Part shown: piece after piece, positions 2,272-31,171 of the stretch
Layout: every line of letters begins with the position of its first letter
Numbering within the stretch: position 1 is the stretch's first letter
Assembly (NCBI GenBank): GCA_964443325.1
Contig: CAYUCL010000006.1
Coordinates: 14,644 to 78,643, forward strand
DNA: 64,000 nt
DNA from: an uncultured Dehalococcoidales bacterium
Lineage (GTDB): Bacteria > Chloroflexota > Dehalococcoidia > E44-bin15
Reading direction: 5' to 3'
The notes under the pieces: model-generated
Databases searched by the model: none
Seen by the model: the letters and a program-made list of their open reading frames with translations, nothing else
Told to the model about the DNA's origin: nothing
Translations under genes and position numbers: made by a program

Positions 2272-3840
2272 ATGGCGAAATATGAGAAAGGGCGTATTCT
2301 CATCGTTGACAGTATCGAGAGCACCGGCGAAACCATGTCGCTCATGTTAACGAAGAGCGGTTATGCGACGAAGGTGGCCGTAACAGGGCAAGAGGCGATG
2401 GAGAAGGCGCGAAGCCAACTCTTCAGCATGGCTCTTGTGGATATCGAGTTGCCTGATATGAATGGAGTGGAGCTAGTGGCATCTTTGAAGGAAATAAATC
2501 CAGATATAACGATGGTTGTCACCGGCTGTCCTTCTTCGGAAACCGTAGTGCAGGCCCTGAATAACGGAGCAGCGGCGTACATCACCAAGCCGTTGAACAT
2601 GGGTGACATACTGGCTACAGTTGAGGGGGCTGTTGAAAAGCAGCATCTGGCTATGGAGAGCAGGAAGCTGTACCAGAAGGCTCAGCGTGAGCTTGCCGAG
2701 AGCAGGCGGGCAGAGCAGGCGCTCAGGGAGTACACGGAGCGGCTGGAAGAGATGCTGGAACGGCGCACCAAGGGGCTTCGAGATGCACGTGAATACGCGG
2801 AGAGCATTGTGGCCGCGATTCGTGAGCCCCTGCTGGTGCTTGATGAGGAGCTGCGTGTAGTCTCGGCCAATCGGTCCTTCTACCGGACTTTCAAGGTGAC
2901 ACCAAAAGAGACTGAGGGACAGCCATTATACGAACTGGGCAACGGTCAGTGGGACATCCCCAGGCTGCGGGAGCTTCTGGCGGAGGTTCTACCCAATAAC
3001 GCAGCCTTTGACGACTTCGAGGTGGAGCATGACTACCCCACCATCGGGCAACGGACGATGCTACTGAGTGCTCGGAGGGAGAGAGAGGCGAGCGAGACAC
3101 GGATGATCCTTCTTACCATTGAAGACATCACCGAGCGCAAGCGGGCAGAGGAAAAAGTCCATATGTTTCAGCGGCGGCTTCGGTCTCTGGCGTCCCAGCT
3201 ATCATTGGCCGAGGAGCGGGAACGCAAGCGTATGGCGTCGGGTCTGCATGACCAGGTTGGCCAGCCGCTGGCTGCGGTTAAGATGAAGTTAGGCGCATTG
3301 CGAGGGCTGTTATCTGATGGCCTTGTTGACCAGGTGGACGAAATCCGGGAGCTTATCGACCAGGCGATTCACGAGATGCGGTCGCTGACTTTTGAGCTCA
3401 GCCCCCCTATTCTCTATGACCTGGGCCTTGAGCCAGCGCTAGAGTGGTTAGTCGAACAGGTGCAAGCAGAGCACGGCATCCTGGGCCGGTTCGAGGACGA
3501 CGGCCAGAACAAGCCACTGGGAGATGACTCTCGGGGGCTGCTCTTCTGGGTGGTGCGCGAGTTGCTGCTGAATGTCGTCAAGCACGCCAAGGCGCGAACC
3601 GCTACAGTATCCATTTGGAGAGATGACGACGAACTACGGGTGAGCGTTGAAGACGACGGGGTGGGATTCGACACCTCGGAGATTGAAAAGATGACCCGCG
3701 GCTTCGGCCTGTTCAGCATCCGGCAGCGATTGACCGAGTTTGGTGGGCAGGTTGAAGTCGAATCTAAGCCCGGCCAGGGAACGCGGGTTATTCTGGTGGC
3801 GCCACTTGATTGCAGTGATGAAAGCGAGCAAGGACACTGA
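2272..3840 (+). CDS. Sensor histidine kinase with N-terminal receiver: REC-PAS-HisKA_3-HATPase_c
   Basis: REC: ILIVDS...ALVDIELPDMNG...ITKP. PAS with the DITERKRAEE linker. H-box SGLHDQVGQPL (HisKA_3). HATPase N/G1/G2 boxes (VVRELLLNVVKHA, DDGVGFD, GFGLFSIRQRL). 522 aa. Confidence 0.85.
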   Translation: MAKYEKGRILIVDSIESTGETMSLMLTKSGYATKVAVTGQEAMEKARSQLFSMALVDIELPDMNGVELVASLKEINPDITMVVTGCPSSETVVQALNNGAAAYITKPLNMGDILATVEGAVEKQHLAMESRKLYQKAQRELAESRRAEQALREYTERLEEMLERRTKGLRDAREYAESIVAAIREPLLVLDEELRVVSANRSFYRTFKVTPKETEGQPLYELGNGQWDIPRLRELLAEVLPNNAAFDDFEVEHDYPTIGQRTMLLSARREREASETRMILLTIEDITERKRAEEKVHMFQRRLRSLASQLSLAEERERKRMASGLHDQVGQPLAAVKMKLGALRGLLSDGLVDQVDEIRELIDQAIHEMRSLTFELSPPILYDLGLEPALEWLVEQVQAEHGILGRFEDDGQNKPLGDDSRGLLFWVVRELLLNVVKHAKARTATVSIWRDDDELRVSVEDDGVGFDTSEIEKMTRGFGLFSIRQRLTEFGGQVEVESKPGQGTRVILVAPLDCSDESEQGH

Positions 3841-3842
3841 GG

Positions 3843-4495
3843 TGAGCGTCAAGGTTATACTGGCTGATGACCACAGGATCGTGCGCCAGGGGCTGCACTC
3901 CTTGCTGGAGAAGGAGCTCGATATGGAGGTGGTTGGCGAGGCGGACAACGGGCGAGCAACTGTAGAGATGGCGCGGGATTTAAAGCCCGACGTTATCGTC
4001 ATGGACATCACCATGCCTGAATTGAACGGAATTGAAGCCACCAGACAGGTCCTCGCCGATGACTCCGCCGTCAGGGTACTCGCCCTGTCGATGCATTCTG
4101 ACAAGCGTTTTGTCTCTGGAGTGCTCGGTGCTGGTGCAACGGGCTATTTATTGAAGGACTGCGTACTGGAGGAACTGGTGCGGGCCATCCGCGTTGTGGT
4201 CGCCGATCAGACCTACCTGAGTCCAGGGATAGCTGGCATAGTGGTAGAAGGATACATGCGTTATCTGCCAGAGGCCGAGAATTCGATTTTGTCTGCTTTG
4301 ACGGCGAGGGAGCGCGAGGTTCTACAGCTCTTAGCCGAAGGGAAAACCGTCAAGGAGATCGGGTACACCCTCCACTTGAGCGTTAAGACCGTTGAAACCC
4401 ACCGCCAGCAAATCACGAAGAAGCTGGATATCCGCACTCTAGCTGAACTCACCAAATATGCCATCCGCGAAGGATTGACCTCCCTCGAGCGCTAA
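3843..4495 (+). CDS. NarL/LuxR-family response regulator (paralog of 315-968 and 17616-18269)
   Basis: VSVKVILADDHRIVRQG...VIVMDITMPELNG...TAREREVLQLLAEGKTVKEIGYTLHLSVKTVETHRQQI. GTG at 3843 follows the kinase stop directly. An alternative ATG lies at 3818. Roughly 80% identical to the other two LuxR regulators. Confidence 0.85.
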
Positions 4496-4689
4496 CTCTG
4501 CAGGTTCTCTTGGAACACAATTGATATGAATTGATGAAGTTTCCCCCTCCCTCTCCTTCCCTAGAAGGATCCCTCCCGCCAGGTCGAAGACTCTTCGTGG
4601 GAGGGAGAACATGTTCCCACCCACCCGCCCCTTGTGTCATTTTTAGGTAGCGTCCCCAGACCCCCGGCAGATTTAAAACCCATTCACCC

Positions 4690-4930
4690 TGAGCCTGTCG
4701 AAGGGCCTGTCCTGAGCTGGTTCGAAGGGCTCACCACGAACGGTGTTTGGCTTCGGCCAGATGGAGCAGCAGGGTGGGTGCAGCCCCTGAGCGGAAGGGC
4801 GAAACCCACCATTTCCATCTCCATTTGGGAAGGTGGGTTCCATTTCATTTCACCCACCCTACTTCTGGTTGGAGCCCTTCCGCTGAAGGGCTCCAACCTA
4901 CTCCGATCCTTTTTCCCCCTCCCTCTAACT
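4690..4930. repeat. GC-rich palindromic interspersed repeat (second copy of the 1265-1480 block)
   Basis: GGTTCGAAGGGCTCACCACGAACGGTG...GGGTGGGTG...GAAACCCACCATTTCCATCTCCATTTGGGAAGGTGGGTTCCATTTCATTTCACCCACCCTACTTCTGGTT is nearly identical to 1330-1500. Confidence 0.75.
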
Positions 4931-4960
4931 CCCTCCCACCAAGGAAGGGGGGACTTCTGC

Positions 4961-5060
4961 CTCAGGTATTTCGAAGGTCAAATTCAGGGATTATAAACCA
5001 AAACTCAGGGATTTCCCGATTGTGCGCTGAACCGTGACCATTTAGTGTAGGAATGTTCTT
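4961..5060 (+). repeat. URE copy B (three TCAGG(G/T)ATT direct repeats at 22-bp spacing plus the CCCGATTGTGCGCTGAACCGTGACCATTTAGTGTAGGAATG box)
   Basis: Sequence family member. It lies 129 nt upstream of the ATG at 5189. Confidence 0.8.
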
Positions 5061-5188
5061 TAGGGCATGTGAGCAAGTCATCGGGGCGAAACAAGTTTAG
5101 GTGACGACACGTGCCGTACACAGTGCCCACTTATAAATGGCTGGCAGCAGTTGGCCAAAATGTCGCTCGTATTGAGGAGAGATATGAG

Positions 5189-6061
5189 ATGAAAGTCAAG
5201 GATAGGACAACAGAGCAGCAACTCATAAGTGAATTGGTGGAGACTCACCAACAGGTCGCCGAATTGGAGATATCAGAGGCCGAGCACAAGCAACGGGAGG
5301 AGGAACTGAGGGAGCATTTGGAGCGATTGGGAACGATGGTGGAGCGGCGCACCAAAGAGCTCCGGGATGCCCACGAAAAGCTCATTCGCCAGGAGAAGCT
5401 GGTCGTGCTGGGAAAACTGGCTGGCGGCGTGGGCCAAGAACTGCGCAACCCGCTGGAAGCTATCAAGAACGCCGCTTGCTTCCTCAACATGTTCCTGAAA
5501 GAGCCGGAACAGGAGGTAAAGAAGACACTGCATATCCTGGAGAAGGAAGTGGCGGCGTCCCAGAGAATCGTCAGCAGCTTACTCGAATTCGCCCGTCCCA
5601 GGCCCCCTGTTTGGCGAAAGGTGGATATCAACCATGTCATTGAGGAAGCACTGTCTCGCGCTGTGTTGCCGCCGAACATCCAGGTGGTAAGGCAACTGGA
5701 CGAGGCGTTGCCGCCCATCCTGGCTGATCCCTATCAGTTATGCCAGGTCTTCGACAACCTCATTCTCAACGCTATCCAGGCTATGCCCGAGGGCGGGCAG
5801 TTGCTGGTCAAATCGGAAATGCAAAGTCCGGAGCGGGTGTGCGTCTCCATCGCCGATACAGGGGAGGGCATAGCGGAGGAGGACATAGGCGAAATCTTCG
5901 AGCCACTCTTCAGCACCAGGGCTGGAGGTATTGGCCTTGGCTTGACCACTGTCAGGACCATTGTAGAGGGTTATGGAGGCACAATCGGAGCCGAAAGTGA
6001 ACAGGGGCAAGGCAGCACTTTCAGGGTAAACCTGCACAAGGACGGGGTTGGTGCAAAGTAG
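5189..6061 (+). CDS. HisKA-type histidine-kinase-like protein (coiled-coil leader-HisKA-HATPase_c) whose H-box reads GQELRNPL, Gln in place of the phospho-acceptor His
   Basis: The H-box region KLAGGVGQELRNPLEAI has CAA at 5435-5437 where HisKA proteins have His. The N-box (QVFDNLILNAIQA), G1 (DTGEGI) and G2 (GGIGLGL) are intact. No transmembrane segment. ATG at 5189 has an upstream GGAGAG RBS; the ORF-track GTG at 5111 is an alternative. Confidence 0.75.
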   Translation: MKVKDRTTEQQLISELVETHQQVAELEISEAEHKQREEELREHLERLGTMVERRTKELRDAHEKLIRQEKLVVLGKLAGGVGQELRNPLEAIKNAACFLNMFLKEPEQEVKKTLHILEKEVAASQRIVSSLLEFARPRPPVWRKVDINHVIEEALSRAVLPPNIQVVRQLDEALPPILADPYQLCQVFDNLILNAIQAMPEGGQLLVKSEMQSPERVCVSIADTGEGIAEEDIGEIFEPLFSTRAGGIGLGLTTVRTIVEGYGGTIGAESEQGQGSTFRVNLHKDGVGAK

Positions 6062-6126
6062 CATGGAGGAGAAGGAGAGCATCCTCATAGTTGTGGAAGT
6101 GCCAGCAATCAATTGAGAACTACAGG

Positions 6127-8970
6127 ATGAAAAAGGGACTGGAAGATAGCAACGGCACAGGTAGAACAGCGACGCCTCCCAAAATCCTGGTGATTGAAGA
6201 CGACCAGGCTCTGTCGCACTTAATCCAGACAAACCTTCGGCGTCTTGATTTTCATACAGAAGGCGTGTCGGATGGCGCTCAAGCTATTGATTGGATAGTC
6301 AACAATGCGGTCACACTGGCGCTGCTGGACTACCGTCTGCCAGACATGAGCGGCGAGCAAGTGATGAAAGCTCTTGCCAAGCGGCAGCGCACCGTTCCCT
6401 TCATCGTTATCACAGGATATGGTGACGAAAAGGTAGCGGTGGAAATGATGAAGCTTGGTGCACGAGACTACCTGGTGAAGGACACGGCATTTCTTGACCG
6501 GCTGTCTCAAGCAGTTGAACGAACGGTTGAACAGCTAGCTATTGAGGACAAACTGGCTGAAGCGGAAAGGGCGCTGAGGGAAAGCGAGGGCAAATACAGG
6601 ACATTGTTGGAGACCAGCGCAACTCCTGTTTACTGGGTTGAGGTGCCGGGTGGGGAGATAACATTTATCAACAAGAAAGCAGAGGACTTGTTCGGAAGGG
6701 GGAAAAAAGACCTGCTGGGCCACAAGCTTTTTGAATTTGTCCCTGAAGATGAGGTAGCGCTTCACCAGGAGAAAATGAAAGAAGCCGCCAGGGAGATGAA
6801 AATCAAAGAGCAGCCAATACCTCAAGTCATAATAAGGCCTGGCGGCGAGCTTAGATACACCGAAGTATACCCGACCATGTTTGAATCGGAGGGGAAGATA
6901 ATAGCACAGGTTATATGCCCAGACATCACCGAGCGCAAGCGGGCGGAGGAGGAGTTGCGGGCTTCGGAAGAAAAACTCCGCCTTATGTTTGAGTCAATAA
7001 GGGAGGGGATCACCGTCACTGATTTGCAAGGCAGCATGACAGATGTAAACGAGTCAGTGCTTCGGATGCATGGGTTCAGAGATAAGGAAGAAATTATAGG
7101 ACGAAGCGCCTTTGAATTCATCTCGGCCAAAGACCGTGCTAGAGCTGAGCAGAACCTGATGAGGACATTTGAGGAGGGGGTAAGCGGGACAATAGAGTAT
7201 ACATTGCTAACCAGGGATGGAGAGCAATTCGATGCTGAGTTAAATGCTGCTTTGATTAGGGATAGCTCTGGAAATCCCGCCGGATTCATTGCAGTTACCA
7301 GGGACATCACCGAACGCAAGCGGGCGGAGGAGGAGATAAAGCGCCATGCTAAGCGCGCTGAGGCGCTCCATGCTGTTGTCCAGGCGGTGAGCCAGACCCT
7401 GGACCTGGATGATATGCTAAGCAATGCGATGGATACAGTAAAAGGGATCATGGAGGTTGATGTTGTTAACGTATACCTTCTCGATGAAGGAACTGGAGAA
7501 CTGACTCTCATTACTCATACAGGGGTGTCCAACGAATTCATTGTCAGCATGAGCATTTTGAAGCTGGATCAAGAGGAAATCGAGAAGCTGCGTCAGTGGA
7601 AAGAGCCGATCATTGTGCTGGAGAGGGCGTTAAATCAGCCTAATCTAGCCAGGATAGCACAAGCGGTACAAAATGAGGGACTACAATCACGTATTGTCGT
7701 GCCGTTGTGGTTGAAAGGCGTCGTTTCGGGCGCAATTGCGCTTGCCTGCCGCCATCCCCGCCAGTATAGCACTGAGGAGATAGCCCTGCTCAAGGCTGTA
7801 AGTAACGAGATAGGAGTGGGTATAGAGAATGCCCAACTTCTGGAGAGGACAAGAGAGCTATCGGTAACCGATGAGCTGACGGAGCTATACAATCGACGTC
7901 ACTTCTACCAGGCGCTTGAGGCAGAGATAGACCGCGCGCAGCGCTATGGTCACTCTTTCTGTTTGGCAATGCTCGATCTTGACGAGTTCAAGGAATACAA
8001 TGACCGGTTTGGACACACCAATGGCGATGCTGTCCTCAAATCCCTTGCCCGTACGCTCAAGTCAGCACTGAGGAAGAGCGATATGGCTTTCCGCTACGGC
8101 GGCGACGAGTTCACTATCATCCTGCCGGTAACAGAGGCTTATAGAGCCAGGAAGATTGTAGACCGCATCAGATCAAAGTGGCTAGAAACGCCTAAGTCAG
8201 ACAAACTCATTCTGGAAGCTCCTCTGGGTTTTAGCGCTGGAATCGCTCAATTCCCTCAGGATGCTGGAACGGCTGATGGCCTGGTATTCCTCGCCGACAC
8301 TGCCCTGTACCATTCAAAGAGGCAGGGAGGATACAAATCTTCACTGGTGTCCGATCTGGGGGCAGTGACACTGGGCGTCCTGGACAGTGCAATGCTGGAC
8401 CACGTCTATGCCCTGGCGGCTACGGTAGATGCCAGAGACCCCTACACCTATGGTCATTCGGAGAGGGTCGCATACATATCGGAAACAATAGGCAGAGCTA
8501 TCGGGCTATCTATGGATGAACTAGTGAACTTACATGCTGCTGCCCTCCTTCACGACATCGGTAAGGTGGGCGTCCCTGACTCAATCTTAACCAAGCCCGG
8601 TAGGCTAACTAAGGATGAATGGCGAGTGATGGAAAGGCACCCTGTTGAAGGGGCAAGGATAGTGGGCCATGTAACGGAACTGGCGGCGCTGGTGCCGATG
8701 ATACGGCACCACCACGAGTGGTATAACGGCACGGGATACCCGGATAGACTCAAGGGTGAAGATATACCCCTTGGCGCCAGAATTATAAGCATAGCTGATG
8801 CCTACGACACCATGACCACACAGCGTCCTTACAGGGATACCGTGTCTGAGGAGGAAGCGCTTGAGGAGCTCAGGCGGTGTTCGGGCACTCAGTTTGACCT
8901 CGGGCTTGTGGAGGCGTTCTGCGGGATCGTCGAGGAACATAATAAGAGAAAAATAAGGGTTGGCGGTTAG
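6127..8970 (+). CDS. Response regulator REC-PAS(x3)-GAF-GGDEF-HD-GYP (c-di-GMP cyclase/phosphodiesterase-type output)
   Basis: REC: KILVIEDDQ...LALLDYRLPDMSG. Three DITERKRAEEE PAS linkers, a GAF region, the GGDEF motif (AFRYGGDEFTIILP) and HD-GYP (HSERVAY...LHDIGKVGVPD...HHHEWYNGTGYPDRLKGEDIP). The ORF-track start is 6091; ATG at 6127 is more likely. Confidence 0.85.
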   Translation: MKKGLEDSNGTGRTATPPKILVIEDDQALSHLIQTNLRRLDFHTEGVSDGAQAIDWIVNNAVTLALLDYRLPDMSGEQVMKALAKRQRTVPFIVITGYGDEKVAVEMMKLGARDYLVKDTAFLDRLSQAVERTVEQLAIEDKLAEAERALRESEGKYRTLLETSATPVYWVEVPGGEITFINKKAEDLFGRGKKDLLGHKLFEFVPEDEVALHQEKMKEAAREMKIKEQPIPQVIIRPGGELRYTEVYPTMFESEGKIIAQVICPDITERKRAEEELRASEEKLRLMFESIREGITVTDLQGSMTDVNESVLRMHGFRDKEEIIGRSAFEFISAKDRARAEQNLMRTFEEGVSGTIEYTLLTRDGEQFDAELNAALIRDSSGNPAGFIAVTRDITERKRAEEEIKRHAKRAEALHAVVQAVSQTLDLDDMLSNAMDTVKGIMEVDVVNVYLLDEGTGELTLITHTGVSNEFIVSMSILKLDQEEIEKLRQWKEPIIVLERALNQPNLARIAQAVQNEGLQSRIVVPLWLKGVVSGAIALACRHPRQYSTEEIALLKAVSNEIGVGIENAQLLERTRELSVTDELTELYNRRHFYQALEAEIDRAQRYGHSFCLAMLDLDEFKEYNDRFGHTNGDAVLKSLARTLKSALRKSDMAFRYGGDEFTIILPVTEAYRARKIVDRIRSKWLETPKSDKLILEAPLGFSAGIAQFPQDAGTADGLVFLADTALYHSKRQGGYKSSLVSDLGAVTLGVLDSAMLDHVYALAATVDARDPYTYGHSERVAYISETIGRAIGLSMDELVNLHAAALLHDIGKVGVPDSILTKPGRLTKDEWRVMERHPVEGARIVGHVTELAALVPMIRHHHEWYNGTGYPDRLKGEDIPLGARIISIADAYDTMTTQRPYRDTVSEEEALEELRRCSGTQFDLGLVEAFCGIVEEHNKRKIRVGG

Positions 8971-8975
8971 GAGCG

Positions 8976-10340
8976 ATGCAGAATACGAGGCTATTTGGAA
9001 CCAGTGGCATCAGGGGTGTGGTCAATCAAGACCTGACGCCAGAGTTGTGCCAGGCAGTGGGCCAGGCGATTGGTGCAACACTGCCTACACATTCAAGGGT
9101 ATGTATCGCCACTGATACGCGGGTGAGCCGAGAAATGGTCAAGAACGCCGTCACTTTAAGCTTGCTTTCTTCAGGCGTAGATGTGACCAGCTTTGGAATT
9201 CTCCCCACCCCGGCACTGGCGCTACTGACCCGCGAGATGGGATTTGATACTGGTATCATGATCACTGCTTCGCATAATCCCCCCGAGTACAATGGCATCA
9301 AACTTTTCAATGGGAACTCAATGGGATATAGCGGGGCTCAGGAAGCCGAGATAGAGCAATTGATGAGCAAAAAGACAGTGAAGATAAGCTTCCCGGGCAC
9401 GCTCAGTCCAGGTCAGCAGTTGAAGGAAACCTACTTCCAGTTCATACAGGACAGGTTCTCCGGCAAGGGCTTCGACCGTCACATGAGGATCGTTGTTGAC
9501 CCGGGAAACGGTGCCGCTGCGGGATTTGCCAGCGAGCTTTTCTCCACCATGGGCTTCAAGGTGTTGCCCTTGAACGATAAGCCAGACGGGCTTTTCCCGG
9601 GAAGAGACCCCGAGCCCATGGAGGATACGCTGCGGGGCACGGTGGAGTTCCTCAGACAGGAGAAGGCTGACCTCGCCGTCTGTTTCGATGGCGATGCCGA
9701 CCGGGTTGTGTTCTGCGACAGGGAGGGGTTCCTCGGATTCAATGAGATGGTCGCCTATATCTCCAGGATTATTGCCATGCAGACGGGGAGGAAGAAAATC
9801 GCCACCACCGTCGAAACGGGCAGACTTCTCGATCTATCGGTGGCGGATCTAGGAGTGGAGGTGGTGCGAGGGATGGTTGGGGATACGGATGTCGCCTATC
9901 TGGCAAGGGAGCTCGATGCTGCCATCGGGGTGGAGGGAGTGGGGGTGTATATAATCCCGGAGGCGGGATACTATCCCGACAGTATTTTCGCTGTACTTAC
10001 ACTCCTAAGCCATCTGAACGATACGCGTGAGATCAGAGGATTCTTCGATGGGATTCCCAGGCTTTTTTTCGAGAAGAGTAAAATACAATGCCCCAATAGG
10101 CTCAAAGAAGATGTCATGGTGGAGATAAGGAAAAGGGTCCATCTCTTTGAAGCCAGTGAGATGAATATCCTGGATGGGCTGAGGCTTGAATACGATGATG
10201 CCTGGATGCTTATCAGGGCTAGCGGCACCGAGCCAGCCATCAGGGTCATTGCGGAGGCTCCATCGCGATCGAGAACCGTAGAGCTCCTGGCCGAGGGGGC
10301 CGAGGCAGTTCACTCATGCCTTGCGAGGTGCGAGCTATGA
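8976..10340 (+). CDS. glmM: Phosphohexomutase of the alpha-D-phosphohexomutase superfamily, probably phosphoglucosamine mutase (archaeal-type GlmM)
   Basis: Phospho-Ser loop TASHNPPEYNGIK and N-terminal LFGTSGIRGVVN. 454 aa. It lies directly upstream of nucleotidyltransferase/acetyltransferase and glmS genes. The stop overlaps the next ATG (ATGA at 10337-10340). Confidence 0.65.
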   Translation: MQNTRLFGTSGIRGVVNQDLTPELCQAVGQAIGATLPTHSRVCIATDTRVSREMVKNAVTLSLLSSGVDVTSFGILPTPALALLTREMGFDTGIMITASHNPPEYNGIKLFNGNSMGYSGAQEAEIEQLMSKKTVKISFPGTLSPGQQLKETYFQFIQDRFSGKGFDRHMRIVVDPGNGAAAGFASELFSTMGFKVLPLNDKPDGLFPGRDPEPMEDTLRGTVEFLRQEKADLAVCFDGDADRVVFCDREGFLGFNEMVAYISRIIAMQTGRKKIATTVETGRLLDLSVADLGVEVVRGMVGDTDVAYLARELDAAIGVEGVGVYIIPEAGYYPDSIFAVLTLLSHLNDTREIRGFFDGIPRLFFEKSKIQCPNRLKEDVMVEIRKRVHLFEASEMNILDGLRLEYDDAWMLIRASGTEPAIRVIAEAPSRSRTVELLAEGAEAVHSCLARCEL

Positions 10341-11656
10341 AGGTGGTCTTTCTCTGTGGGGGCATCGGGAAGAGGATGTTCCCTATTACCGAGGATAAGT
10401 TCCTGCTCAAGTTTCTGGGGAAAACCCTGCTAGAACACCAGATCGAGAGGGCAAAGGAGGCTGGGCTGACGGACTTCGTTTTCATCGCAAGTCCGAGCAA
10501 TATCGACAGAGTGGGGGAGATCACAAAGAGCCTTACTGGTGTCAAGGCCGAGCTGGCCCTCCAGATTCGGCCGATGGGAATTGCTGATGCACTCAGGAGT
10601 GCTGAGCGCTTTTTCGACGGTGAAATCATCGTGCTCAACCCGAACGACATCTTCGAAAGATCAGCCTATAGCAGCCTTATTGAAGCCGTCAGTGACAACT
10701 CTGCCATTTCATACCTGCTTGGCTACGAAGTGAAAAGCTATTTCCCCGGGGGCTACCTTGTGGTGAACGAGAACAACGAGTTGCAAATCATCATTGAAAA
10801 GCCAGGCAAGGGTGTGGAGCCGAGTAATCTGGTAAACGTCATGGTTCACCTCCATACCGATCCAAAGAGGCTTATCAAATACGCTGATGGCGTCGAGAGC
10901 CGTAGAGATGATATTTATGAGTGCGCCTTAGATGCTATGGTGAGGGACAAGCATAAGATCAAGGTCGTTCCCTATTCCGGCTTCTGGACGGCGATAAAGT
11001 ACCCGTGGCATATATTCAATGTGGTGAGGCGATTCCTCGACGAGAGCGAAGGATACATATCACCATCGGCAAATATCTCTGACAAGGCGGTAATCGAGGG
11101 CAAGGTTATTATAAGTGACAACGTAAGGATTTTCGAGAATGCGGTCATACGTGGGCCTGTGTACATCGGACCGAACTCGGTGATCGGCAATGGTAGCCTG
11201 GTTCGGGAATACAGCCACATCGGGGCAAATTGCGTTGTGGGATATTCGACCGAGGTAAAGAACTCCTATATTGGGGATAATTGCTGGTTTCACATGAGCT
11301 ACATCGGTGATTCCATAATAGCTGAGCGATGCTCCTTTGGCGCTGGGACCACACTGGCCAACTTCCGTTTTGACGAAGGAAATATCTCGGTCAGAATAGG
11401 GGATGAGTTGGTAGATACTGGGCTCGATAAGCTGGGGGCCATAATCGGGAACAACTCCAGGACGGGGATAAACGCCAGCGTTCTGCCCGGTATTAGAATC
11501 GGTCCCAATTCTGTTGTCGGCCCACACGTATGCCTTGCCGAGGATCTTGAACAAGGCAAGTTTGCCGTAGTTGAGCCGAGGTATAGGGTAATGTCAAACA
11601 AGATCAGGGTGAATAATCAAGAGAATGCAAGGGGAGGAGGGAGTTTCGAAAAATAG
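10337..11656 (+). CDS. Bifunctional sugar-1-phosphate nucleotidylyltransferase / acetyltransferase (N-terminal NTP_transferase, C-terminal left-handed beta-helix), GlmU-like archaeal type
   Basis: N-terminal MKVVFLCGGIGKRMFP matches the G-G-x-G-x-R nucleotidyltransferase motif. The C-terminal half is rich in hexapeptide repeats (IGPNSVIGNGSLV, IGANCVVGYSTEV, IGDNCWF). It lies between glmM-like and glmS genes. Confidence 0.7.
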   Translation: MKVVFLCGGIGKRMFPITEDKFLLKFLGKTLLEHQIERAKEAGLTDFVFIASPSNIDRVGEITKSLTGVKAELALQIRPMGIADALRSAERFFDGEIIVLNPNDIFERSAYSSLIEAVSDNSAISYLLGYEVKSYFPGGYLVVNENNELQIIIEKPGKGVEPSNLVNVMVHLHTDPKRLIKYADGVESRRDDIYECALDAMVRDKHKIKVVPYSGFWTAIKYPWHIFNVVRRFLDESEGYISPSANISDKAVIEGKVIISDNVRIFENAVIRGPVYIGPNSVIGNGSLVREYSHIGANCVVGYSTEVKNSYIGDNCWFHMSYIGDSIIAERCSFGAGTTLANFRFDEGNISVRIGDELVDTGLDKLGAIIGNNSRTGINASVLPGIRIGPNSVVGPHVCLAEDLEQGKFAVVEPRYRVMSNKIRVNNQENARGGGSFEK

Positions 11657-12167
11657 AAGCGGTGGAAGAATCTCCACCACACCGAGATTCTTCCCCTTCA
11701 CTCTGTTCAGGGTCAGAATGACAGTAAGGGCTGGTGGGTGGGAAGACACGGCTGTCATTGCGAGGAGCATTAGCGACGAAGCAATCCAAGGGAGGCATTC
11801 CAGGCCCACGTATCATTCTGTGGGTCTCTATGGGGAGCGGCAGCACACATGTCATTCTGAGAGTCCTCGAGTAAAACGAAGGGCCATGGAGAGCCCCCCA
11901 CCGAGATTGCTTCCCCTTCACTTTGTGAAGGGTCGCAATGACAATAACGGACCGGGGTTTAGATGTGTACACATAGAGATTCTTCGCTGCGCTCAGAATG
12001 ACAGTTAAAGCGATGGGGTAGGCTACCCTGTTTAGGTATGCGCCCCAGGGTGGGCGGGTGGGTGGGAATTTAAGGATATCGTTGCCAGGTCTCCGAAGGC
12101 GACTCGCCTTTGGCGAGGGCATCAGAGGCGAATAAATATTCGGGGGAGGAAATGGAAGGAAAGAATA
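11657..12167. repeat. Repeat-rich 510-bp intergenic spacer (CCACCGAGATTCTTCCCCTTCAC..GTCAGAATGACAG family plus GGCGACTCGCC hairpins)
   Basis: Three degenerate copies of a roughly 45-bp unit ending in (T/C)CAGAATGACA (11673-11745, 11894-11950, 11975-12002). Related copies occur at 26300 and 26760-26810. The GGCGACTCGCCTTTGGCGAG hairpin also occurs at 16925-16960 and 26395-26415. Confidence 0.6.
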
Positions 12168-13940
12168 ATGTGCGGAATAGTCGGTTTTGTAGGCAAAAGC
12201 GATGCTGCGCCCAGTGTGCTTAGAGCGCTGAGGAAGCTGGAGTACCGCGGTTATGATTCTGCCGGTATGGCCACCATCAGCAATGGCCACATTTCGTACG
12301 GTAAAGACGTAGGCATGCTCGCAGAGGTGGAGCAAAAACAGGGCCTCGATAAGCTTTCGGGACGGGTTGGGATTGGGCATGTCCGCTGGGCAACTCATGG
12401 TGGCGTTACTCCAATAAATGCGCACCCTCATTTCGACTGCAAGCAGCAGATCGCAGTGGTCCATAACGGGATCGTAGAGAATCACGAGCAACTGCGGCGC
12501 AGACTCAAGAGCGGGCACAATTTCGTCTCCGAAACCGACACCGAGGTGATTCCCCATCTTATTGAAGAGTATATGGAAACGGGCGCCTCTCTTGAGCAGG
12601 CCATGTGCCAGACGGTGAAAGAGCTCAGGGGCTCCTATGCTATCCTTGCCATCTCAGCTAGTGAACCGCAGAAGATAGTTGCTGCCCGCAAGGATAGCCC
12701 TATGGTGGTTGGGGTCGGGGAGGGTGGAAACTACATTGCCAGCGATGCTCTTTGTTTCCTCGATACTACCAATCGAGTTCTGTTCGTTGAAGACGGCGAT
12801 ATCGTCAGTGTGACCAGGGAGAAAGTCACCTTTCTCGATAGCGGCGGTATGGAATTACAGAGAGAGCCGCAGGAAATAGACTGGAAATGGGACGAAGCCA
12901 CAAAGCAGGGTTATGACTTCTTCATGCACAAGGAGATAATGGAGCAACCGCAGGCAGTGCGCTCTGCCCTGATGCAGGACAGGCATTTAATAATGGGAAT
13001 GGCCATGGACATTCTGAGGGCAAGATCGGTGGTGTTTACCGGCTGCGGCACTTCCAGGCATGCCGCCCTCATCGGCAGGTATCTTTTTTCAAAGGTTGGC
13101 GGCAAGCTGAGCGATGTCATAATAGGCTCTGAATTCCATCATTTCTCCGATTCGATTGACAGGAACACCGTGGTGGTAGCCATCTCCCAGAGCGGTGAGA
13201 CCGCCGATGTTCTGGAAGGGGTGAAGAGAGCCAAGGAGAACGGAGCTGCCATATTCTCCGTGGTCAACGTGGTGGGGTCTTCACTGGCCAGGATGAGTGA
13301 CAAGGTCATCTATCTAAACTGCGGTCCTGAGATAGGCGTAGCCGCCAGCAAGACGTTCGTGAGCCAACTGGTAATCTTGTATCTACTGGCTTTTGCTATG
13401 GTAAATAGACTTCGCGAAGGGGTTCGCACCATCAGGGCCATTTCTCCGTTGATAGAGAAGAATTGCAATCACAACGGAGACTCCTTAGAAAAATTGTCTG
13501 TGATACTCAGGGAAAAGAACCAGTTCTATTACATAGCTCGGGGGATAAACTTCGCTATAGCTGCTGAAGCGGCACTGAAGCTCAAGGAGATCGCCTACGT
13601 ATATGCCGAGGGCATGCCCGCCGGGGAGCTGAAGCATGGCAGTTTGGCCTTAATAGAGGAAGGAACTCCAGTAGTGGCGATATGCCCGGCGGATTATACA
13701 TTTGAAGAGACCATGTCCAATGTCGCTGAGGCCAAGGCACGGGGGGCATTTGTCATCGGGGTTTCCGACCGCGACGAAGAGCTCTTTGACAGGTGGATCA
13801 GGATTCCTTCTGTTGGGGAGGTATTGTACCCCTTGGTGAGCATCGTGCCGCTTCAGCTTTTTGCCTATCACTCGGCGGTGGCACGGGGCCTGGACCCCGA
13901 TAAGCCTCGCAACCTGGCGAAGTCGGTGACTGTTAAATAG
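12168..13940 (+). CDS. glmS: Glutamine--fructose-6-phosphate aminotransferase (isomerizing)
   Basis: N-terminal MCGIVGFVG class-II glutamine amidotransferase with Cys2, followed by two SIS domains. 590 aa. The C-terminus ends ...NLAKSVTVK as in GlmS. An RBS GGAGGAAATGGAAGG lies upstream. Confidence 0.9.
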   Translation: MCGIVGFVGKSDAAPSVLRALRKLEYRGYDSAGMATISNGHISYGKDVGMLAEVEQKQGLDKLSGRVGIGHVRWATHGGVTPINAHPHFDCKQQIAVVHNGIVENHEQLRRRLKSGHNFVSETDTEVIPHLIEEYMETGASLEQAMCQTVKELRGSYAILAISASEPQKIVAARKDSPMVVGVGEGGNYIASDALCFLDTTNRVLFVEDGDIVSVTREKVTFLDSGGMELQREPQEIDWKWDEATKQGYDFFMHKEIMEQPQAVRSALMQDRHLIMGMAMDILRARSVVFTGCGTSRHAALIGRYLFSKVGGKLSDVIIGSEFHHFSDSIDRNTVVVAISQSGETADVLEGVKRAKENGAAIFSVVNVVGSSLARMSDKVIYLNCGPEIGVAASKTFVSQLVILYLLAFAMVNRLREGVRTIRAISPLIEKNCNHNGDSLEKLSVILREKNQFYYIARGINFAIAAEAALKLKEIAYVYAEGMPAGELKHGSLALIEEGTPVVAICPADYTFEETMSNVAEAKARGAFVIGVSDRDEELFDRWIRIPSVGEVLYPLVSIVPLQLFAYHSAVARGLDPDKPRNLAKSVTVK

Positions 13941-15170: not shown

Positions 15171-16253
15171 ATGTTAAAACAGGATGAGATGAAAACGCAA
15201 CTCCTAGATAAGCTGCCAGCATTGTTGCAGCCAACTGCTGAGTTGGAAGCATCAGAAACCGAGCGCAAGCGGGCGGAGGAGGCACTGGAGAAATCCGAAG
15301 GACTGTCCCGAGGCCTGATAGAGGCTGCGACAGTCGGCATATACATTGTCCAAAATGGGAAGTTCCAGTATGTCACCCCAGAATACGCACAGATTTCGGG
15401 TTACACAGTTGATGAGCTTTTAGGGACTTATTCTCTCAATTATATCCACCCGGACGATAAAGAGACGGTCAGAAAGAAAGCAGTAGAGCACCTGAAGGGT
15501 AAGAATGGGATACCCTACAAGTTTAGGCTTGTATGTAAGGACGGCAGGATATTGTGGGGTTTGGAGAAGGTTGCTTCCATCCGGTACAAAGGGAGGCCAG
15601 CAACGGTAGGAAGCTTTAGGGATATCACCGAGCGCAAACAGGCTGAGGAGACGTTCAGACAGAGTTTGGAAAAACTGGAAAGAATATTGGGGCAAACGGT
15701 CAATGCGCTGGCATCGGTGGTCGAATTAAGGGATCCCACAATGGCTGGTCACCAGAGGCGGGTAGCCCACCTGGCGAGCGCTATAGCCAGTGAGATGGGG
15801 CTCCTAGAGGATCAGATTAGTGGAATCTATATGGCCGGGCTTGTTCACGATGTGGGCACGGTATATGTGGCTGAAGAAATCCTCAGAAAGCCCGGTCGGT
15901 TAGATGAGGTTGAATTCAGCATGGTGAAAGTTCAGCCTCAAGCCTCTTACGACATATTGAAGACGATAGAGTTCCCATGGCCGGTTGCCGAGATGGTGCT
16001 TCAGCATCGCGAAAGGATGGATGGGTCTGGCTATCCTGCCGGTTTATCGGGTGAAGATATTCTCCTGGAAGCGAGGATTTTGGGGGTAGCTGAAGTTGTC
16101 GAGGCTATGACCTCCGACCGATCTTACCGACCAGCTCCGGGCATAGATGCAGCCCTGGCTGAGATTTTAAACAACCGGGGCATCCTATATGACCCGGTGG
16201 TGGTAGATACCTACTTGAGGCTCTTCAACGAGAATAGGTTTAAGTTCGAGTAG
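15171..16253 (+). CDS. PAS-HD-GYP domain protein (c-di-GMP phosphodiesterase type) with coiled-coil N-terminal leader
   Basis: Leader MLKQDEMKTQLLDKLPALLQPTAELEASETERKRAEEALEKSE. PAS: GIYIVQNGKFQYVTPEYAQISGY...DITERKQAEE. HD-GYP: HQRRVAHLASAIA...GLVHDVG...HRERMDGSGYPAGLSGEDI. 360 aa. About 85% identical to 18548-19630. Confidence 0.85.
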   Translation: MLKQDEMKTQLLDKLPALLQPTAELEASETERKRAEEALEKSEGLSRGLIEAATVGIYIVQNGKFQYVTPEYAQISGYTVDELLGTYSLNYIHPDDKETVRKKAVEHLKGKNGIPYKFRLVCKDGRILWGLEKVASIRYKGRPATVGSFRDITERKQAEETFRQSLEKLERILGQTVNALASVVELRDPTMAGHQRRVAHLASAIASEMGLLEDQISGIYMAGLVHDVGTVYVAEEILRKPGRLDEVEFSMVKVQPQASYDILKTIEFPWPVAEMVLQHRERMDGSGYPAGLSGEDILLEARILGVAEVVEAMTSDRSYRPAPGIDAALAEILNNRGILYDPVVVDTYLRLFNENRFKFE

Positions 16254-18420: not shown

Positions 18421-18547
18421 TTTACACATATCACATATAATAGAGACGAGCCTGAGCGAACAGGTTGAAATGGCGGCGGCGGCCACGTACCGACCGGTGA
18501 GTTGGGAGGATACGTGTCCGTAATTATGTTTTTTGGTGGGACAAGAG

Positions 18548-19630
18548 ATGGTAAAGCAACATACGGCGAAAGAGCAAGTCACAAACGAGTTGGCGGCGTT
18601 GCAGCAGCGAATCAGTGAACTGGAAGCAGCGGAAGCCGAGCACAAGCGAGTGGAGGAGGCACTCAGGGAATCTGAAGAACTGTCGCGAGGCCTGATCGAG
18701 GCGGCCACAGTCGGCACATACATTGTCCAGGATGGAAAATTCCAGTATATCAACCCGGAGTACGCACAGATTTCAGGTTACACCGCGGATGAGCTTCTGA
18801 TGACATATTCCCTCGATTACGTCCACCCTGACGACAGAGAGGCAGTCAGGACGAAGGCGATAGAGCACCTGAAGGGCCGCGATAGGAGATCCTACGAGTT
18901 CAGGCTTGTGCGCAAGGATGGGGAGATACGGTGGATTCTGGAGAGGGTCGCTTCCATCCCTTACAAAGGGCAGCGAGCAACGATAGGAAGCTTTATGGAT
19001 ATCAGCGAGCGCAAGCGGGCGGAGGAAGCGCTCAGATACAATGTTGAAAGACTGCAAAGAATGCTGGGGCAGACGGTTGGTGTGCTGGCATCAGTTGTTG
19101 AAGTGAGGGACCCCACCACCGCTGGTCACCAGCGGCGAGTGGCCCACCTGGCGAGTGCCATAGCCAGCGAGATGGGCCTAATAGCGGATCAGATCACTGG
19201 AATCTATATGGCCGGGCTTGTTCACGATGTGGGAGCGATATATACCCCCAGCGATATCCTCACTAAGCCGGGCCGGCTGGACGATGCTGAATTCAGCATG
19301 GTGAAAGACCAGCCGCGGGTCTCCTATGACATATTGAAGATGATAGAGTTCCCGTGGCCGGTGGCCGAAGTGGTCCTCCAGCACCGAGAAAGGATGGACG
19401 GGTCTGGCTATCCTGCTGGTCTATCGGGCGAAGATATCCTGCTTGAGGCGAGGATTCTGGGCGTGGCCGACGTGGTGGAGGCCATGACCTCCGACCGCCC
19501 CTACCGTCCGGCTCCGGGCATAGATGTAGCCCTGGAGGAGATCTCAAAGAACCGGGGCATCCTGTATGACCCGGTGGTGGTAGATACCTGCTTGAGTCTC
19601 TTCAACGAGAAGAAGTTCAAGTTTGAGTAG
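18548..19630 (+). CDS. PAS-HD-GYP domain protein (paralog of 15171-16253)
   Basis: Leader MVKQHTAKEQVTNELAALQQRISELEAAEAEHKRVEEALRESEE, then a PAS domain and an HD-GYP domain (HQRRVAHLASAIASEMGL...HRERMDGSGYPAGLSGEDI). ATG at 18548 has GGTGGG upstream; the ORF-track TTG at 18533 is an alternative. Confidence 0.85.
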   Translation: MVKQHTAKEQVTNELAALQQRISELEAAEAEHKRVEEALRESEELSRGLIEAATVGTYIVQDGKFQYINPEYAQISGYTADELLMTYSLDYVHPDDREAVRTKAIEHLKGRDRRSYEFRLVRKDGEIRWILERVASIPYKGQRATIGSFMDISERKRAEEALRYNVERLQRMLGQTVGVLASVVEVRDPTTAGHQRRVAHLASAIASEMGLIADQITGIYMAGLVHDVGAIYTPSDILTKPGRLDDAEFSMVKDQPRVSYDILKMIEFPWPVAEVVLQHRERMDGSGYPAGLSGEDILLEARILGVADVVEAMTSDRPYRPAPGIDVALEEISKNRGILYDPVVVDTCLSLFNEKKFKFE

Positions 19631-20658: not shown

Positions 20659-20895
20659 ATGAAGAGCTGGTTATCTATGGGCCTTTCTCATAGGGGAGAG
20701 GCTTTATATTTTTTAGGTGGTATCGGTGGTGTTGTGCTTCAGACTATGGAGCGTCGCTATTCCGCGACACCCAAACAGGCTGAAAGCGTGTCGGCAGCGA
20801 ATCTATTGGATGAGGTGATATATCGTCACATCAAAACGGGTGACGGGCTGTGGTTGCCTGAAATTGCCGCTCTTTTTAGGAGGCACACGAAATGA
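20659..20895 (+). CDS. Hypothetical 78-aa protein in the leader of the giant sensor gene (stop overlaps its ATG as ATGA)
   Basis: ORF MKSWLSMGLSHRGEALYFLGGIGGVVLQTMERRYSATPKQAESVSAANLLDEVIYRHIKTGDGLWLPEIAALFRRHTK. I recognise no known domain. A weak GGCGGGGG lies upstream. It could be non-coding 5'-UTR. Confidence 0.25.
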   Translation: MKSWLSMGLSHRGEALYFLGGIGGVVLQTMERRYSATPKQAESVSAANLLDEVIYRHIKTGDGLWLPEIAALFRRHTK

Positions 20896-27580: not shown

Positions 27581-27965
27581 AGGGTGCCCACGGCCGTGTA
27601 GTCGCTTTTCGGACTGCCAAGATTCTTCGACTTCACAGTGAAGTGATAAAGGCGATGATCTAAATCAAGGGACCGCTGGACAAGAAGAGTTGAGAAGAGG
27701 AATGTGCCCTCGGTGCTAAGAAAGATACGAAACAGGAAAGCTGTTCTTGGCTTAGGTTTCTCCGTCGGTGAAGTAAGCCCGTGTTCCATCATCCATTAGC
27801 GCGATTACCGGTAAAGTTGCTACCGCTAGACCGGGCATCTTCTCAACCGGTTTTGTTTCTACCTTTTTCCTTGTAGCAATCCGGTAAAACATGAGGTGGT
27901 CTGTGTCAGAAGCTGGGGTATATCGATATAGAAGCAAAGATATCCAGAGAGAACGAGAGGTGGCC

Positions 27966-30029: not shown

Positions 30030-30062
30030 GTTGGTCGATTTAGACTGTGGGGTTAACAGACA

Positions 30063-30449
30063 ATGCCGGAGAAAATACTGATCGTAGAAGATAACCCCCA
30101 GAGTATGAGGGTAGCTCTAATGACGCTCAGGCCACACGGTTATAGCTTGCTTCAGGCAACGGATGGGGAAGAGGCCCTCGCAGTTGCTACCGGGGACAAA
30201 CCAGACCTCATCATAATGGATTTACAGCTTCCCAAAGTGCATGGACTTGAGGCAACAAGAAGGCTCAGGCAGATGCCAGACTTTGGAGGTATTCCTATAA
30301 TTGCAGTCACTGCGCATGCCATGAAGGGAGATGAGGAGAAGGTTTTTGAAGCTGGGTGCGATGCCTATTTGCCAAAGCCGATCAATACTCGCGAGTTGGC
30401 TAGAGTGGTTGCCGAAATGCTGCTTAAGCGCAAGAAAGCTAATGCTTAG
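30063..30449 (+). CDS. CheY-like single-domain response regulator
   Basis: 128 aa. ILIVEDNPQSM...LIIMDLQLPKVHG...IIAVTAHAMKGDEEKVFEAGCDAYLPKPI. Confidence 0.85.
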   Translation: MPEKILIVEDNPQSMRVALMTLRPHGYSLLQATDGEEALAVATGDKPDLIIMDLQLPKVHGLEATRRLRQMPDFGGIPIIAVTAHAMKGDEEKVFEAGCDAYLPKPINTRELARVVAEMLLKRKKANA

Positions 30450-30460
30450 CTTTAAAGTGG

Positions 30461-31171
30461 GTGTCAATGGAGAAGACAATCCTTGTAGTGGACGACGACC
30501 CCGCCTTTGTCAGGCTAGTTAGCAAGGCTCTTACCCACGAAGGGTACGAGGTGCTCACTGCCGGTGATGGCCAGGAAGCCTTGCGGCTTCTGTTTGCACA
30601 CAAGCCAGGCTTGGTGCTTCTGGATGTTGTGATGCCAAGGATGGATGGCTGGCAAACCTGTAGCCGTATCCGCGAACTCTCTGACGCACCCATAATTATG
30701 CTTACCGGTGAGCAGAAGTCTGAGGAGGATGTGGTGCGCGGGCTCAACTACGGCGCTGATGAATACGTTATCAAACCCGTAGGGAATAAAGAGTTATTAG
30801 CAAGGGTGCGAACGGTGCTGAGACGCGCTGATTTGTCGACTTCACCGGGTACTGAGAAGGAGATTGCCTATAACGATGACTACCTTACTGTTGATGTCGC
30901 CAAGCGTATGGTTATGGTAAATGGAGAGCGAGTGAAGTTGACCCCAACGGAGTTTCGCTTATGTGCACTCCTGGTGGAGAATGCTGGACGCGTTCTCACT
31001 CACAAGCAAGTACTGGAAAAAGTGTGGGGCTGGGAATATGCTGATGATTTGGATTACGTACGTATCTATGTGTGGCACCTGCGCCAGAAGATAGAGCCAG
31101 ACCCGGCTCAGCCCAGATACATTATAACCGAACCTGGAGTGGGATATTACTTCCAGAAAGCTAAGTTGTGA
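30461..31171 (+). CDS. OmpR/PhoB-family response regulator (REC + winged-helix Trans_reg_C)
   Basis: ILVVDDDPAFV...LVLLDVVMPRMDG. The C-terminus LTPTEFRLCALLVENAGRVLTHKQVLEKVWGWEY...VRIYVWHLRQKIE is a typical OmpR wing. Confidence 0.85.
   Translation: MSMEKTILVVDDDPAFVRLVSKALTHEGYEVLTAGDGQEALRLLFAHKPGLVLLDVVMPRMDGWQTCSRIRELSDAPIIMLTGEQKSEEDVVRGLNYGADEYVIKPVGNKELLARVRTVLRRADLSTSPGTEKEIAYNDDYLTVDVAKRMVMVNGERVKLTPTEFRLCALLVENAGRVLTHKQVLEKVWGWEYADDLDYVRIYVWHLRQKIEPDPAQPRYIITEPGVGYYFQKAKL

Follow-up and report, generated by a model that had tools for sequence, protein, structure and literature searches.

In a 64,000-nucleotide stretch of DNA from an uncultured Dehalococcoidales bacterium (contig CAYUCL010000006.1; this whole stretch is called the window here), the gene at 5189..6061 on the + strand encodes a HisKA/HATPase_c protein that carries glutamine in place of the phospho-acceptor histidine. 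We refer to this His-less protein as HK-Q. Judged by its sequence, HK-Q qualifies as a pseudo-histidine kinase of the DivL/PsmA class: of what defines a canonical HisKA kinase, it has the dimerisation and phosphotransfer domain (DHp, HisKA) and a complete ATP-binding domain (CA, HATPase_c), and it lacks a phosphorylatable acceptor His. We tentatively propose, with confidence somewhat short of even, that HK-Q is a kinase-dead, phosphatase-competent partner of the cyclic di-GMP (c-di-GMP) regulator encoded directly downstream at 6127-8970.

Glutamine at the acceptor position of HK-Q

Read in the frame of the open reading frame (ORF) 5189-6061, the H-box of HK-Q (5420..5455, + strand) is AGGVGQELRNPL, and the codon CAA at 5435..5437 (+ strand) encodes Gln83 at the position of the phospho-acceptor His, as the initial annotation of this DNA had claimed. 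The HisKA register underlying that claim was upheld by phmmer alignments, which place Gln83 on the acceptor His of four solved kinases, ZraS, KinB, ThkA and FixL. The aligned H-boxes read SISHEIRNPL in KinB, RVAHEIRNPI in ThkA and ALAHELNQPL in FixL; the ZraS acceptor segment opposite Gln83 is 'LAAGVAHEIRNPL', given also as AAGVAHEIRNPL. A misregistered alignment with a nearby His as the true acceptor was rejected, since the register is the same in four independent alignments and the 20 residues on either side of Gln83 contain no His. The further claim that there is no other His in the vicinity holds over this range, the nearest being His62 (-21) and His114 (+31, not conserved).

The remainder of the H-box and the ATP-binding boxes, described as intact in the initial annotation, proved to be so both on reading the sequence and in the orthologue alignment. 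G82 and E84-L89 are invariant in every orthologue and also in a sister clade described below. Asn87 (AAC, 5447..5449, + strand), located at +4 from the acceptor position and invariant in the orthologue alignment, completes the E-x-x-N motif (Q83-E84-L85-R86-N87); it is the residue of the E/D-x-x-T/N motif, defined by T/N at acceptor +4 (PMC3510030), that is required for HisKA phosphatase activity. The N box, which binds ATP/Mg (QVFDNLILNAIQAM, 5744..5785), the G1 box (DTGEGI, 5855..5872) and the F and G2 boxes flanking the ATP lid (IFEPLFS and GGIGLGL, 5894..5944), all on the + strand, are present and invariant among orthologues. Replacement of His by Gln at the acceptor is a classic laboratory way to abolish autophosphorylation. 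Because Gln83 cannot be phosphorylated, we infer that HK-Q has lost canonical autokinase activity, and the earlier exclusion of autophosphorylation at the canonical site is supported, as Gln stands at the true acceptor position.

According to the ORF list and Pfam, HK-Q is a 290-amino-acid protein consisting of a coiled-coil stalk followed by the DHp and CA domains. A GAGGAG ribosome-binding site precedes the ATG at 5189, and this 290-residue form is the one chosen by most gene callers; an alternative start is the GTG at 5111. Pfam detected HisKA (34.3 bits, cutoff 26.9) and HATPase_c (86.7 bits, E = 1.8e-24) and no sensor, PAS or other output domain. The AlphaFold2 (AF2) model, with a mean predicted local distance difference test score (pLDDT) of 86.7, has a continuous helix at residues 6-102 comprising the stalk and DHp alpha-1, then a short loop, alpha-2 at 108-135 and an alpha/beta CA domain; pLDDT is low in the ATP lid (residues 243-248), which is common in lids that are flexible. 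The closest match in both sequence and structure is the ZraS cytoplasmic domain 9jfj (phmmer E = 6.5e-41; Foldseek E = 1.8e-21), HK853 and WalK are further fold matches, the sequence and fold searches also matched the DivL structure 4q20, and the nearest NCBIfam models for the transmitter are AtoS and ZraS. The predicted fold is that of a standard DHp-CA transmitter. The DHp-CA core is 55-68% identical to that of hundreds of PAS-, GAF-, HAMP- or REC-linked kinases from related metagenomes.

We considered whether a lost sensor domain might be concealed in the gap of about 700 bp between the preceding NarL-type regulator gene and HK-Q (4496-5188), and dropped this idea, as tblastn gave no credible match there to the PAS, GAF or HAMP parts of the relatives. 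This gap contains no convincing ORF, Rfam match or sensor remnant, and the 64-kb window as a whole gave no Rfam family. The 250 bp directly 5' of the HK-Q start are 87-91% conserved across the HK-Q orthologues, equal to the coding sequence; in the sister clade, this gap is shorter by about 340 bp.

Fixation of Gln83 and selection on HK-Q

The exact HK-Q protein is on record in 11 contigs of NCBI, JGI and Logan assemblies, and in the loci retrieved from these (8/8) the 873-nt gene shows 0 nucleotide differences from the window. Eight further distinct proteins bearing Gln, 89-92% identical to HK-Q, come from Dehalococcoidia metagenome-assembled genomes (MAGs) and metagenomes, and Gln83 is present in 9/9 distinct orthologues (89-100% identity) from independent assemblies, which we call the Gln clade. 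Every Gln-clade locus with DNA retrieved, including those of the 89-92% identical orthologues, has the codon CAA. A sequencing error is therefore ruled out by the identical gene in the eight retrieved loci together with CAA in divergent orthologues; the doubt about the base call at 5435-5437 that accompanied the initial annotation is answered, and the conservation of Gln among orthologues that it had left to be checked is confirmed. All nine Gln-clade sequences are full length, with frameshifts or stops in none (0/9). Outside the clade no residue other than His occurred in the acceptor column, either among the other top hits (0/118) or among additional 50%-identity cluster representatives (0/139); all 257 of these nearest relatives carry His. 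A contig-wide scan for more relatives yielded a single close locus, L016, other matches being only 27-38% identical.

The ratio of non-synonymous to synonymous substitution rates (dN/dS), calculated pairwise by the Nei-Gojobori method within the Gln clade, was 0.22-0.42 for the whole HK-Q gene and 0.18-0.33 for its CA domain. It was below 1 in all six pairs, with binomial p values against neutrality of 4e-8 to 7e-3. The range for HK-Q is like that of the neighbouring signalling genes, namely the intact HisKA_3 kinase (0.32-0.41), the downstream regulator (0.22-0.38 for the whole gene and 0.28-0.59 for its receiver domain) and the NarL-type regulator (0.20-0.22); for the phosphoglucosamine/phosphohexose mutase gene (PGM) the values were 0.12-0.14. 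The Gln clade is young, with a pairwise dS of 0.10-0.21 and a synonymous tree length of 0.30 across four Gln-clade genes, from which the neutral expectation for the motif codons was derived. Taken together, the codons of the H-box and of the N, G1, F and G2 boxes number 41, and in them we counted 1 amino-acid change against about 28 expected under neutrality, alongside 11 synonymous variants (Poisson P ~1e-11 for the non-synonymous deficit). The seven H-box codons (G82, E84-L89) had 0 amino-acid changes against 4.4 expected, and the N box 0 against 10.2 together with 4 synonymous variants. As far as these substitution patterns reveal, HK-Q is maintained by purifying selection after the loss of His. 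The constraint on the motifs and the full-length genes therefore suggest that the function of HK-Q needs the H-box and the nucleotide site and not the His.

A sister clade that retains the histidine

Proteins of a sister clade (P0003, P0128-P0130) are 73-75% identical to HK-Q, 290-292 residues long and of the same architecture, and both this clade and an outgroup have CAC, encoding His, at the acceptor codon. The sister-clade loci are collinear with the window: in L011, positions 502-1356 correspond to window 3647-4501 (80% identity), 1495-2602 to 4962-6082 (82% identity) and 2629-3608 to 8944-9923 (92% identity). The segment missing from this His-retaining clade is 6083..8943 (+ strand), 2.86 kb that contain the regulator gene. 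Its 75-nt spacer between the kinase and PGM genes matches window 6062-6082 plus at least the last 27 nt of the regulator ORF (8944-8970), and the regulator 3' end retained there encodes ...KRKIRVGG*. In addition, the upstream REC-PAS-HisKA_3 kinase has been reduced in the sister clade to a decayed 3' remnant of 72 codons. This remnant, at 477-692 in L011 and L012 and 612-827 in L013, corresponds to window 3622-3837, is 56-60% identical and has broken G1 and G2 boxes.

Because two independent 3' remnants persist in the sister clade, the deletions are placed there, and the sequences argue for two deletions having dismantled its signalling locus. The opposite direction, insertion of the regulator in the Gln clade, is less likely given the regulator 3' end and the 72-codon kinase remnant that the sister clade keeps. 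The ancestor therefore had a kinase with His together with the regulator, and the replacement of His by Gln, which is set against His in the collinear sister clade and in all 257 other close relatives, is derived, a single transversion of CAC to CAA. Two candidates were tried as outgroups for the presence of the regulator: the nearest REC-GAF-GGDEF-HD-GYP homologue (P0152) has no adjoining kinase, and the gene after the short kinase P0009 encodes a REC-REC protein that is unrelated (23% identical).

Constraint on the sister-clade kinase seems to have relaxed: Gly75 and Gly80, invariant in the family, are both Val (G75V, G80V), and two sequenced members differ by 18 non-synonymous versus 4 synonymous changes, which are small numbers. 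So it appears that the lineage that kept the His dismantles the module and the lineage that lost the His keeps the whole of it. The two clades share departures from family positions that are 86-99% conserved, E48G, Y97C, E112K, K244R, K246G, H262Y and P283H. Because these departures are common to both, sequence change would already have been accelerated in their common ancestor, before the loss of His. In the sister contig L013 the NarL-type regulator (832-1485) is split into a 147-residue REC ORF and a 69-residue GerE ORF, by a frameshift or an assembly error.

The downstream regulator

The gene following HK-Q (6127..8970, + strand) encodes, according to Pfam, a REC-PAS-PAS-GAF-GGDEF-HD-GYP regulator of 947 residues from the ATG at 6127, or 959 from the TTG at 6091. 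As originally reported, it retains its receiver phospho-acceptor, Asp68 (GAC, 6328..6330, + strand); moreover, the whole receiver pocket is complete (E24-D25-D26, D68, T96, K118) and is conserved in all four regulator orthologues, and therefore phosphorylation control of the regulator probably still matters. An RKSD I-site (RxxD) followed by the GGDEF motif lies at 8071..8112 (Pfam GGDEF E = 3.7e-42), and the stretch from the HD motif (HDIGK) to the GYP motif at 8551..8742 (Pfam HD_5 E = 2.6e-39), both on the + strand.

HK-Q and the regulator are on the same strand with a 65-nt gap, and a scan of 4400-6300, which has weak power for this phylum, revealed no terminator-like site between them and no sigma-70-like promoter. 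Their synteny is kept in four Gln-clade genomes (L001, L009, L014 and L016), and orthologues of the regulator with a receiver were found only in the Gln clade. The description of the regulator as the apparent cognate partner is thus backed by spacing, the lack of a terminator-like site and synteny; its basis is adjacency. In L016 (Dehalococcoidia MAG CSMAG_854) the regulator orthologue has a stop at 6588-6590, at about window 7330 ('SSGNPA*FIGVVRDITERK'), which splits it into ORFs of 524 and 684 residues and is either a nonsense mutation or an assembly error.

It had also been suggested that nearby PAS kinases phosphorylate the regulator. They are not obvious donors: the REC-PAS-HisKA_3-HATPase kinase upstream of HK-Q (2272..3840, + strand; Pfam) and one further upstream are of the HisKA_3 type, and each is followed by its own NarL-type regulator, in the first case at about 3842..4495 (+ strand). 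The sole other HisKA kinase in the window, a hybrid kinase at 27891-30029 that is distant from HK-Q (phmmer E = 2e-19), is a candidate phosphodonor.

A proposed phosphatase role and its alternatives

Four things make up our proposal, and we infer all of them: that HK-Q has lost autokinase activity, that it retains phosphatase activity, that its neighbour is the substrate and that nucleotide plays a role. HK-Q would dimerise through its DHp helices and dock the receiver of the downstream regulator, where Asn87 would position the hydrolytic water and HK-Q would strip the phosphoryl group from Asp68; it would be unable to add one, Gln83 not being phosphorylatable. The regulator would receive its phosphoryl group from another donor, either a different kinase or a small-molecule phosphodonor, and HK-Q would set the lifetime of the phosphorylated state and hence the balance between c-di-GMP synthesis by GGDEF and breakdown by HD-GYP. 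The nucleotide-binding CA domain would be kept since nucleotide supports or regulates the phosphatase conformation; in EnvZ and NtrB, nucleotide binding supports the phosphatase state. A model for such a protein is the H371A mutant of CrdS, a kinase with an H-box of the H-E-I-R-N-P-L type, in which kinase activity is abolished and most phosphatase activity is kept: CrdA~P has a half-life of 53.5 min without CrdS, 0.7 min with the wild-type, 2.6 min with H371A and 47.6 min with N375A, and the critical phosphatase residue is the Asn, N375, not the His (PMC3510030). The initial annotation had listed pseudokinase, scaffold, phosphatase and partner phosphorylated in trans as possible roles. This was the right list, and the invariant E-x-x-N motif and H-box and the constrained ATP motifs refine it towards the phosphatase.

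Several points weigh against this proposal. PleC H610A, as cited within PMC3510030, loses both kinase and phosphatase activity, so the CrdS result is not valid for every kinase, and DivL has neither activity (PMC4211667). Glu84 is also invariant in HK-Q, though it is needed only for kinase activity in CrdS; its invariance is not required by a pure phosphatase model, but with a synonymous tree length of about 0.30 the clade is a young one. The constraint on the ATP motifs would fit equally well or better those models in which the CA domain transfers phosphate, to a heterodimer partner or to an alternative acceptor. The partnership of HK-Q with the regulator is based on adjacency only, AtoS and ZraS, the closest named or solved relatives, pair with NtrC-type regulators, and no donor kinase was identified for the regulator. 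Finally, L016 has its in-frame stop within the regulator PAS domain, HK-Q being intact there.

We consider it unlikely, though deserving of attention, that HK-Q has neither kinase nor phosphatase activity and instead serves, as DivL does, as a sensor or scaffold that reads the phosphorylated receiver and allosterically modulates the regulator or a kinase. The acceptor His is gone, the receiver-docking surface of the DHp domain is conserved and the gene is under purifying selection, all in keeping with DivL, which has Tyr for His and binds DivK~P via its normal docking face (PMC4211667). However, DivL binds ATP weakly and needs neither its ATPase domain nor its acceptor residue, whereas HK-Q keeps its ATP motifs constrained; PsmA has lost D/ExxT/N, whereas HK-Q keeps E-x-x-N under strong constraint; and HK-Q has no PAS or other output domain for a reverse signal of the DivL kind. 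Rather unlikely, too, is that the DHp domain of HK-Q pairs with that of a paralogous His kinase, which its CA domain would phosphorylate in trans or which it would block in the manner of RetS and GacS; a sensor kinase would in this way gain a subunit that has no sensor of its own. The strong constraint on ATP-binding motifs in a protein whose own acceptor is gone, the lack of a sensor domain and the abundance in related metagenomes of sensor-linked kinases with a 55-68% identical core all speak for such pairing, and it has precedents in RetS-GacS and in the trans-complementation of His-minus and ATP-site-minus subunits of NtrB-type kinases. On the other hand, kinase DHp domains are normally insulated against heterodimerisation, and the 64-kb window holds no close paralogue, its sole other HisKA kinase being distant. 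Heterodimerisation of ChrS with HrrS has been reported (PMC9491836).

Early decay, in which loss of function in a dispensable kinase drifted to fixation and further disabling mutations have yet to accumulate, is improbable and largely refuted by the selection tests. It would agree with an unstable locus, whose regulator and most of whose HisKA_3 kinase were deleted in the sister clade and whose regulator carries a stop codon in one Gln-clade genome, with a dN/dS of HK-Q (0.22-0.42) above that of the housekeeping PGM (0.12-0.14) and with the youth of the clade (pairwise dS 0.10-0.21). But in all six pairs dN/dS falls significantly short of 1, and it does not exceed that of the intact signalling neighbours; the 41 motif codons show 1 change where about 28 are expected, all 9 sequences are full length, and the signs of relaxation sit instead in the sister-clade copy (G75V, G80V, 18 versus 4). 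We find it hardly credible that the acceptor has been relocated to His62, leaving HK-Q a kinase with a shifted H-box. The His62 codon (CAC, 5372..5374, + strand) lies 21 residues, or three heptads, N-terminal of Gln83 on the same helix and is followed by Glu; His62 is present in all 9 Gln-clade proteins, even through a synonymous CAC-to-CAT change, the pattern between clades is reciprocal (the Gln clade has His62/Gln83 and the sister clade Tyr62/His83), the CA domain is intact and under constraint, and a shifted or atypical acceptor His has been proposed for CCNA_03265 and Lpl0330. Yet His also occurs at -21 in 4/111 and 11/139 canonical relatives that keep the normal His, and because of these 15 relatives we regard His62 as a tolerated neutral variant, probably older than the change of His83 to Gln. 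The AF2 model, moreover, locates His62 in the stalk: it is some 13 residues higher than the upper end of the four-helix bundle, and some 30 A separate it from the canonical site. Its surroundings, DAHEKLIRQ, lack the R-N-P-L part of an H-box. Position 62 is Gln in about 80-90% of the family, so that the two positions look like a His/Gln 'swap' relative to the family consensus. The broader idea that HK-Q is not a dead kinase at all, its acceptor having moved to His62 or its CA domain phosphorylating a partner kinase in trans, is very doubtful; if true, the reciprocal pattern of the clades would record a phospho-acceptor re-positioned or outsourced in nature. In a softer version, the two sister clades, one with the regulator kept and the other with it lost, would show how a hard-wired phosphatase-only 'kinase' arose within the time span of a genus.

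Comparison with known systems

Laboratory mutants of the NtrB H139N type are kinase-minus and phosphatase-plus. HK-Q resembles them and CrdS H371A in its H-box (x-E-[IL]-R-N-P-L), in which only the acceptor His is replaced and the +4 Asn and the CA domain are intact. Those proteins, however, are engineered, whereas HK-Q is a natural allele fixed in a clade and kept by selection; it has Gln rather than Ala or Asn, and its neighbour is a c-di-GMP enzyme rather than an NtrC-type activator.

Natural His-less kinases form an established class that includes DivL, PsmA and CCNA_03265. DivL of Caulobacter crescentus, cited as a precedent in the initial annotation, is a fair one for the class: it too combines HisKA/HATPase_c with a natural replacement of His that is conserved in orthologues and with a preserved receiver-docking surface. 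As a functional precedent it is a poorer fit. Neither kinase nor phosphatase activity is left in DivL, its binding of ATP analogues is about 19 times weaker than that of typical kinases and its ATPase domain is dispensable (PMC4211667), whereas HK-Q keeps its ATP motifs and E-x-x-N under purifying selection. Furthermore, DivL signals via PAS domains to CckA and HK-Q has no PAS domains, and HK-Q is evolutionarily young and adjoins its presumed regulator. PsmA of the Streptomyces polarisome is another natural HisKA-type protein without the acceptor His, and in S. avermitilis it has Gln at this position; the residue there varies among E, D, Q, V and Y, the PsmA H-box is XSLRGP without D/ExxT/N and the protein has no autokinase activity (PMC12963549). 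PsmA, a PAS-containing hybrid kinase, serves as a scaffold for DivIVA. In HK-Q, by contrast, neither the Gln nor any other part of the H-box varies.

In PleC/DivJ-PleD and in other pairs of a kinase with REC-GGDEF-(EAL/HD-GYP), such as Lpl0330-Lpl0329, the phosphorylation state of a c-di-GMP enzyme bearing a receiver is governed by a HisKA protein, as we propose for HK-Q. PleC acts mainly as a phosphatase, against a separate kinase, and phosphorylation of Lpl0329 shifts its cyclase/phosphodiesterase balance. PleC and Lpl0330 still have a His that can be phosphorylated and are active as kinases, whereas in HK-Q a phosphatase-only state would be hard-wired. Signalling through another kinase, with no autophosphorylation of their own, is seen in the kinase-like proteins RetS (Pseudomonas aeruginosa) and the evolved ChrS pseudokinase (Corynebacterium glutamicum); RetS, however, retains its His, and the ChrS pseudokinase lost its CA domain by a frameshift.

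Natural His-less kinases are known but few have been studied, and the best-characterised, DivL and PsmA, have also lost ATP binding and/or the phosphatase motif. HK-Q differs from its kinase-competent relatives essentially at one residue, with the ATP site and the phosphatase motif protected by selection, and may represent a less-documented 'phosphatase-only' flavour of pseudo-histidine kinase. It offers a clean natural test of whether a HisKA protein can be kept purely as a phosphatase or as a nucleotide-dependent receiver reader, it also asks what purpose a CA domain has when the histidine is absent, and the change can be dated by the His-bearing sister clade, which at about 75% identity also serves as a revertant control already at hand. 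HK-Q establishes no new principle; it is a sound, testable case of moderate interest in a neat evolutionary context. If it acts on its neighbour, it would give Dehalococcoidia, a group for which we know of almost no experimental signalling biology, a bifunctional c-di-GMP enzyme with a negative input that is hard-wired. More generally, labels such as 'ATP-binding protein' or 'histidine kinase' can hide catalytically dead members, which come to light only when the acceptor column is checked.

Other genes of the window

The hybrid kinase mentioned above (PAS-HisKA-HATPase_c-REC-REC, 712 residues) is followed by an OmpR-type regulator, the two genes spanning 27891-31171. The window is rich in c-di-GMP genes: two paralogous PAS-HD-GYP proteins are encoded at 15171-16253 and 18533-19630, and a protein of 1764 residues at 20892-26186, with about eight PAS domains and GAF-GGDEF-HD-GYP, is a receiver-less relative of the 6127-8970 regulator. 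Downstream of the signalling genes lies a UDP-GlcNAc precursor cluster (8976-13940) encoding a GlmM-like phosphoglucosamine/phosphohexose mutase, a GlmU-like nucleotidyltransferase/hexapeptide acetyltransferase and GlmS (GATase and SIS). The mutase gene starts 5 nt past the regulator stop codon, and the two may be co-transcribed.

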